A stretch of 9,171 bases of DNA from contig NW_021827866.1 in assembly GCF_006345805.1 (NCBI RefSeq), positions 1-9,171 on the forward strand, in the 5' to 3' direction. Position numbers and translations under genes: made by a program. Every line of letters begins with the position of its first letter. Position 1 is the first letter of the stretch. Under the pieces are notes generated by a model that searched no databases, was not told where the DNA came from, and saw only the letters and a list, made by a program, of their open reading frames with translations. This stretch comes from Octopus sinensis. Its lineage: Eukaryota. This document shows positions 6,703 to 6,782 of this stretch, one piece after another.

Positions 6703-6782
6703 CCAGAACTGTTAGTAATAGTTTCACGAATTGGACTTCCTAATGAATGAAAGGAAGTTCGGCGCTCATCAGACAGTTCTGG
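6703..6782 (-). ncRNA. Type I hammerhead ribozyme, family C, canonical core with long stems
   Basis: Minus strand: perfect 10-bp stem I CCAGAACUGU/ACAGUUCUGG; CUGAUGA (6772-6766); stem II GCG/CGU, internal loop, then ACUUCCU/AGGAAGU; GAAA (6725-6722); stem III ACU-AUU-ACU with one C.C mismatch; CUA triplet with predicted cut between 6713 and 6712. Confidence 0.85.

Follow-up and report, generated by a model that had tools for sequence, protein, structure and literature searches.

Does the minus strand of an AT-rich stretch of Octopus sinensis DNA (contig NW_021827866.1, assembly GCF_006345805.1) encode a genuine hammerhead, could that hammerhead still cleave, and what kind of mobile element would have left it there? 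We addressed these questions in a window of 9,171 nt, which is the whole stretch of DNA analysed here and in which all positions below are counted. The reading that we consider likely is that positions 6703-6782 hold a disabled type I hammerhead from the end of a lone, 5'-truncated Penelope-like element (PLE), a retroelement (a solo pLTR, probably of Hydra-clade format).

A type I hammerhead layout on the minus strand

The reverse complement of 6703-6782, read from 6782 to 6703, has a real hammerhead layout of type I, and there is none on the plus strand at this place (Table 1). All ten pairs of stem I are Watson-Crick, and the 40-nt stem II domain between CUGAUGA and GAAA comprises three proximal pairs (6765-6763 with 6728-6726), a 4 x 6 internal loop and seven perfect distal pairs. 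U16.1 falls on 6714 and A17 on 6713. A first-pass annotation of this DNA had listed the same hammerhead features at these positions, and its core numbering, its cut site and its choice of C16.2 as the critical lesion all agree with our reading. The mismatch of C15.2 with C16.2 adjoins both the A15.1-U16.1 pair and the cut site, and the stem III pairing that hammerheads require (PMC9901934 and PMC8495972, as excerpted) is absent; because these two bases are unpaired, we class the motif as hammerhead-derived and not as a working ribozyme. Shifted cleavage registers (with A at 16.1, or with A15.1 edited) were judged by hand and rejected, as both break stem I.

Pair 10.1-11.1 is G.U rather than the preferred G-C. 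The internal loop of stem II is, to judge from the sequence, probably native and not a product of decay. Given that all 34 bases of stem I and the distal helix are perfectly paired and irregularity is confined to one loop, we read the long stem I and the two-part stem II as probable family features; about four events within six bases would be needed to turn a perfect helix into the present loop.

Table 1 Features of the hammerhead-derived motif and its host block, in window coordinates
Feature	Position	Strand	Basis or remark
Stem I, 5' strand, 10 nt	6773..6782	minus	Pair probabilities 0.95-1.0
Catalytic core C3-U4-G5-A6-U7-G8-A9, exact CUGAUGA	6766..6772	minus	Sequence reading
Proximal stem II, 5' strand, G10.1.U11.1 wobble	6763..6765	minus	Weakly populated register
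Stem II internal loop, 5' side (6762-6759), distal helix and loop II	6735..6762	minus	Fold prediction
Distal stem II helix, 7 bp	6758-6752/6741-6735	minus	Pair probabilities 0.79-0.99
Loop II, 10 nt	6751-6742	minus	Fold prediction
Internal loop, 3' side (6734-6729), and proximal stem II, 3' strand (6728-6726)	6726..6734	minus	
G12-A13-A14-A15.1 (GAAA)	6722..6725	minus	Sequence reading
Stem III segment, 9 nt, near-palindrome around central U	6714..6722	minus	C16.2 (6715) opposite C15.2 (6721)
Would-be scissile bond 3' of A17, 6713/6712	6712..6713	minus	Inferred via hammerhead numbering
Stem I, 3' strand, 10 nt	6703..6712	minus	Pairs with 6782-6773
Stem I extension, predicted (2x1 loop, 3 bp, 2x2 loop, 4 bp)	6693..6793	minus	6793-6783 with 6702-6693
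Loop II complement, 9 nt with one G.U, possible pseudoknot partner	6637..6645	minus	Post hoc, marginal
Host block, ~330 bp, AT-rich, non-coding	6595..6925	minus	Right boundary approximate

Chance expectation and model scans

To gauge how often such a motif arises by chance, we applied a block-wise dinucleotide shuffle to the entire window and scanned both strands with a descriptor that demanded neither the distal helix nor stem III. The core with a stem I of at least 10 bp appeared in one of 3000 shuffled windows, and any descriptor match with a stem I of at least 4 bp in 43 of 3000. The minus-strand fold has a z score of -4.32, with 0 of 200 shuffles as stable; the plus strand comes near this value (z = -3.83) and also beats 200 of 200 shuffles. 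Since the plus strand folds similarly, the assignment of the motif to the minus strand rests on the core and not on the fold.

The first-pass annotation had proposed covariance models as a check, and these gave no support: Rfam hammerhead models have no match at E <= 10 in the window, the block, the motif or the family B hammerhead described below, and they miss the other hammerheads of the window as well, which weakens this negative. Weak Rfam miRNA and snoRNA matches in the window were set aside as microsatellite noise, and a tRNA scan found none. The pairing of loop II with 6645-6637 was noticed post hoc; its 9 bp were reached by 216 of 5000 shuffles and its energy by 136 of 5000, and we regard the predicted pseudoknot as marginal.

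Other hammerheads in the window

A relaxed scan recovered three further hammerheads in the window, at 452-486 (plus), 4483-4517 (minus) and 3639-3689 (plus). The first two are minimal hammerheads without loop III that we presume to form one family, A. They are 85% identical over ~200 bp. Core position 4 is C rather than U in each of them, which may be a trait of this family. The hammerhead at 3639-3689, presumed family B, is a type I hammerhead of Hydra format with a CUGACGA core, 5 bp in stem I and a stem III that is intact and near-palindromic (C15.2-G16.2, GUU site). It would be cut after 3684, and from its sequence it appears more likely to be active than the 6703-6782 motif, hereafter family C. 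Shortly upstream of stem I, families C (6783-6793, minus) and B (~3610-3625, plus) match by eye at 10 of 11 positions, which chance could produce.

Predicted folding and the energetics of stem III

In the MFE structure obtained with ViennaRNA, stem I and the distal helix persist, but the core, at U12-G16 of the 80-mer, is paired with the loop and the stem III region. Proximal stem II moves to another register, that of the hammerhead having a probability of ~0.03 against 0.65-0.87 for the shifted one. The statement that C16.2 is the only defect therefore stands in part: the mismatch is present, but the wobble at 10.1-11.1, the sparsely populated proximal register and the paired core have to be added to it. 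The native hammerhead fold lies 4.0 kcal/mol above the MFE; among 5000 sampled structures, two had an open core together with the right stem II and none had the 15.2-16.2 pair. The motif had also been presented as one mutation away from a perfect fold, which these predictions do not support, as placing G at 16.2 in silico adds one pair to the competing hairpin that sequesters the core, lowers the MFE from -24.6 to -27.1 and widens the hammerhead gap from 4.0 to 6.5 kcal/mol, with 0 of 5000 samples qualifying. Given that ViennaRNA also misfolds the intact family B hammerhead (gap 2.7 kcal/mol), and that such programs under-call hammerheads, the misfold is a weak argument when taken by itself.

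Formation of the native stem III is predicted at +7.0 kcal/mol in a monomer and at +4.9 kcal/mol in double-hammerhead form. Placing G at 16.2 in silico makes the segment a palindrome, with predicted values of +0.8 and -7.5 kcal/mol, respectively; the corresponding values for family B are +0.2 and -5.9 kcal/mol. Judging from these energies, the native copy is predicted to lack a usable stem III, and the presumed G16.2 ancestor appears to have been built for dimer pairing, which is the dimer signature of PLE ribozymes; the proposal that the motif could fold as a monomer finds no support here. Werner and Uhlenbeck reportedly found in 1995 that the chemical step is impaired when inner pairs of helix III are mismatched. 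The literature that we searched yielded no direct data on a 15.2-16.2 mismatch and cleavage, and the available text of PMC9901934 and PMC8495972 is silent on that pair. By analogy, intact sister copies might cleave as monomers, as single-repeat cleavage is known from type I hammerheads of coral and mussel retrozymes in which helix III is short (PMC7229834).

The host block and its junctions

The motif lies in an AT-rich block, as had been noted, with a GC content of 32.8% at 6597-6925 against 41.0% for the window. The left (3') junction of the block, 6595/6594, leads into a short TA run (6590-6594) and resembles in form the family A junction at 4375, and the last letters ahead of the TA run are identical in families A and C. 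From cut to junction we count 118 nt for the 6703-6782 motif, against 105 nt for family A (measured on the 4483-4517 copy) and 96 nt for family B, whose TA-like junction lies at ~3780. The core, the stems and the mismatch, like the single copy in the window and the distance to the TA junction, can be read directly off the DNA.

The block is flanked by (GA)14 at 6556-6583 on one side and by TA/TG-rich DNA from ~6925 on the other; it has the short TA run at one end and this TA/TG-rich DNA at the other, and no long (TA)n array. Neither a second copy of 6597-6925 nor a tandem unit of the block's size was found in the window, and six-frame translation revealed no ORF remnant in the block, nor any in its 143 nt that precede the motif. 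There is no clear target-site duplication at the block; GTATA, present on both flanks (6589-6593 and 6924-6928), is not credible as one in TA-rich DNA.

Comparison with known hammerhead-bearing elements

For comparison we used the 25 Hydra-clade PLE families in the available part of PMC8557442 File S2 (26 rows minus the duplicate Penelope-13_HM). By eye, C15.2-G16.2 is found in 25 of 25 families, and in Penelope-1_HM and Penelope-18_HMa the ten letters A15.1-A17 equal those of the octopus motif except at 16.2. The pair 10.1-11.1, likewise scored by eye, is G-C in 7 families, U.U in 14, G.U in 2, U.C in 1 and ambiguous in 1, and both G.U and U.U occur naturally at this pair (PMC8557442; PMC3088659). 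The stem III segment measures 9 nt in 19 of the 25, as in the octopus motif. The spacer from core to GAA spans 12-26 nt in these families as against 40 nt here, and stem I spans 3-7 bp, with one family reaching 10 including a bulge, as against 10 uninterrupted pairs here. The distance from cut to 3' end is 30-153 nt in 23 of 24 families (one has 355; one 5' copy was left out).

The octopus motif and Hydra-clade PLEs such as Penelope-1_HM, Penelope-13_HM and Hydra-2_aMil are alike in the type I format, the 9-nt stem III palindrome, tolerance of a 10.1-11.1 pair other than G-C, A17, a cut within ~150 nt of the 3' end and, as it appears, a TA-rich insertion site, Hydra elements being known to insert in (TA)n (PMC8557442). 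The octopus motif differs in its C16.2 mismatch, in the internal loop and distal helix of stem II and in having no attached ORF. Hydra-1_oBim, the sole octopus family in File S2 as available, has a hammerhead of different sequence, and File S2 also includes deviant hammerheads of plant PLEs in which the loop II region is long. The Hydra-like stem III and the cut-to-junction distance support a solo pLTR, as the first-pass annotation had proposed, or a truncated PLE end.

Minimal PLE hammerheads resemble the motif in being of type I with a palindromic 15.2-16.2/loop 3, and they are mostly solo, stem from truncated PLEs and depend on dimers; their helices (I of 4-5 bp, II of 7-8 bp, III little or none) are like those of family A, whereas the 6703-6782 motif has a helix III capable of 3 bp and far longer helices (PMC4209133). 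PLE hammerheads number thousands in animal genomes (PMC4209133), and most are solo, variable, weak in vitro and dimer-acting (PMC4209133; PMC6765202; PMC6155905). Genomic 3' ends of the anole element lie at RT start sites 111-118 nt into the ORF, and its cut lies at 26 nt (PMC11167929), from which a cut-to-3'-end distance of ~85-92 nt can be derived; its hammerhead relies on the protein of the element, and insertion in vitro does not require the hammerhead (PMC11167929).

The 'HHR_half_core' of Naiad elements, known from cephalopod elements, has core halves 35-50 nt apart, a range that includes the 40 nt seen here (PMC8557442), but the 3' ends of Naiad_Ovul and Naiad_Obim have GAAA ahead of CUGAUGA. 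An identity with this half core was dropped, as the 3' ends of Naiad_Obim and Naiad_Ovul are unlike the block by eye and in four motif searches. By eye, these 3' ends (PMC8557442 File S5) contain a GUA site, GAAA and CUGAUGA, with a 6-bp stem I, a 5-bp stem III and no Watson-Crick stem II; the block order is that of non-circular type-SGC hammerheads (PMC10085705), and Naiads may carry rearranged hammerheads.

Origin and fate of the locus

If the block is the end of a PLE, tandem copies of the parent RNA would have paired through the palindromic stem III into a double hammerhead cut after GUA, perhaps with the aid of protein. The element's protein would prime reverse transcription ~100 nt 3' of the cut at an AT-rich nick, and the PLE reverse transcriptase/GIY-YIG protein would have copied the last ~330 bases of the element RNA into a TA-rich site, early termination leaving only the 3' end inserted; as only 3' UTR would have been copied, the absence of an ORF remnant in the upstream 143 nt is expected. 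A later G-to-C transversion at 6715 would have broken the pair beside the cut, and the broken pair, together with the lack of a neighbouring copy for dimerisation, would have left the copy inactive. Both the ancestral G16.2 and the PLE parentage of the block are suggested by analogy with known families, and membership of the Hydra clade is a matter of resemblance only, because no RT or GIY-YIG ORF is linked to the block. Most probably the native copy no longer cleaves and is decaying neutrally; selection need not be invoked, because neighbouring repeat copies differ by 5-30%.

The block could instead be a solo monomer, equally dead, of a non-LTR retrozyme, a non-coding ~330-bp repeat that spreads as circular RNA from tandem arrays. 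Metazoan retrozymes are low-GC, non-coding units of about this length with one type I hammerhead (PMC7229834; bioRxiv 10.64898/2026.07.22.740005), and a block of ~330 bp and ~33% GC fits units of 150-450 bp and <50% GC (PMC7229834; mussel repeats measure 350-390 bp). Internal loops in a long stem I also look more like a retrozyme, the block is free of ORF remnants, and mollusc retrozyme hammerheads, like the octopus motif, are without the archetypal loop 1-loop 2 nucleotides. We nonetheless hold this origin to be unlikely, given that the window has no tandem copy and that the stem III format, the cut-to-end distance and the TA junction fit PLE ends. The motif also differs from the canonical geometry of retrozymes, a 6-bp helix I and a 4-bp helix II with its loop. 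The two origins overlap in any case, as retrozymes are derived from pLTRs, and solo monomers are common among them (bioRxiv 10.64898/2026.07.22.740005). A more far-reaching idea, which we treat as speculative and rather improbable, is an undescribed large-format PLE/retrozyme family characterised by the 10-bp stem I, the two-part stem II and the 9-bp pseudoknot; its G16.2 sisters would be fast monomers that switch between rod-like inactive and active folds, unlike the weak, dimer-only PLE ribozymes, and the C16.2 copy could act as an enzyme half in trans.

That the copy itself still functions, either by slow cleavage in cis aided by the pairing of loop II with 6645-6637 or as the enzyme half of a trans heterodimer cutting intact sister RNAs, seems very unlikely, even though no damage is seen in the core, in stem I or in the distal helix and a mixed native/G16.2 stem III duplex is predicted at -1.3 kcal/mol against +2.2 kcal/mol for native/native. 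Pseudoknots, as a substitute for loop-loop contacts, stabilise ~40% of hammerheads (PMC3088659), and the 9-bp complement of loop II would likewise pair loop II with sequence 3' of stem I; the octopus partner, however, lies 58 nt past stem I and is a marginal, post hoc prediction from one sequence. The mismatch adjoins A15.1-U16.1, and structures with an open core were scarce in the sampling described above. The earlier suggestion that the motif might cut any minus-strand transcript crossing it is unlikely for the same reason, the mismatch adjoining the cut, and the window gives no sign of a transcript at this place. A-to-I editing cannot convert C to G. A sequencing or assembly error at 6715, or a minor allele of what is usually an intact ribozyme, would suit a motif that is well preserved apart from one transversion, yet where repeats in the window differ by 5-30% one substitution per 80 nt needs no special cause, and we find this highly improbable. 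We give next to no credence to a chance core within a decayed inverted repeat (a hairpin or MITE-like element) that lacks ribozyme descent: both strands do fold well, there is no Rfam match, and three A.C mismatches beside the distal helix become G.U on the plus strand, but the exact core abuts stem I on one side and a U-A pair on the other, it is accompanied by GAAAC and a near-palindromic 9-nt stem III, and shuffled windows produced a single comparable case even under the looser descriptor.

Searches for related copies

A sister copy was sought through the translated frame spanning the motif, and a word-index search (30-98 aa only) returned no candidate. The two long proteins, of 871 and 944 aa, that came out of a profile-free scan of 1.84 billion protein representatives were set aside as irrelevant on their tabulated values; the best identity is 39% over query residues 19-48, a span that does not take in the core-encoded residues. 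An exact 19-nt scan of bacterial and archaeal genomes gave four matches against 4.3 expected, with the likeness ending at 19-24 nt and no hammerhead, and blastn against phages gave four records, with 32-33 nt matches at E 0.1-0.3. Four short motifs are absent from the available Naiad, Chlamys and Hydra consensus files, in which matches spanning line breaks could escape. By titles and abstract openings, none of the papers listed for octopus hammerhead ribozymes deals with the 6703-6782 family, and the word 'ribozyme' is absent from the O. vulgaris repeat paper as excerpted (PMC13282606). The family may be undescribed; its kind is well known.

A single copy that is likely dead matters little in itself, as PLE hammerheads occur by the thousand and are mostly solo and variable (PMC4209133). 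What is unusual here is the combination of a 40-nt stem II domain with an uninterrupted 10-bp stem I, both beyond the 25 Hydra families compared, and the value of the locus lies in the handle that it provides on a family with such a stem II that Rfam models miss. The large-format family C beside minimal A and standard B in one genome would offer a series in which monomer and dimer cleavage could be compared.

PLE traces and repeats in the window

Separate from, and unlinked to, the hammerhead block, a fragment of a GIY-YIG endonuclease lies at 1005-1506 (plus). It is Hydra-like by eye, has a degenerate CxCX5C linker and one in-frame stop, and is cut off by a SINE-like repeat at ~1512. Its atlas neighbours include a mostly eukaryotic cluster, ranked at 0.94, in which 27% of members have GIY-YIG; Pfam gave no match for the fragment, nor did a word-index search with it. 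Because this fragment occurs together with Hydra-format hammerheads, we conclude that PLEs are present in the host genome. In Octopus vulgaris, PLEs are recognised as a class that has expanded (PMC13282606).

The SINE-like repeat of ~400 bp is present in four copies (712-919, 1514-1929, 2769-3191 and 7792-8170) with a central (TA)n and pairwise identities of 66-83%, and we take this repeat type to be typical of octopus genomes. On the minus strand, ~6185-6541 resembles the end of a Tc1/mariner-like transposon that starts just inside TA at ~6541; a DUF4817 helix-turn-helix match within it, at 6268-6483, has an E value of 3e-4, below the curated cut-off. An inverted pair at 1-149 and 3863-4012, one arm of which runs off the start of the window, is 95% identical over 150 bp and appears to be a young repeat.
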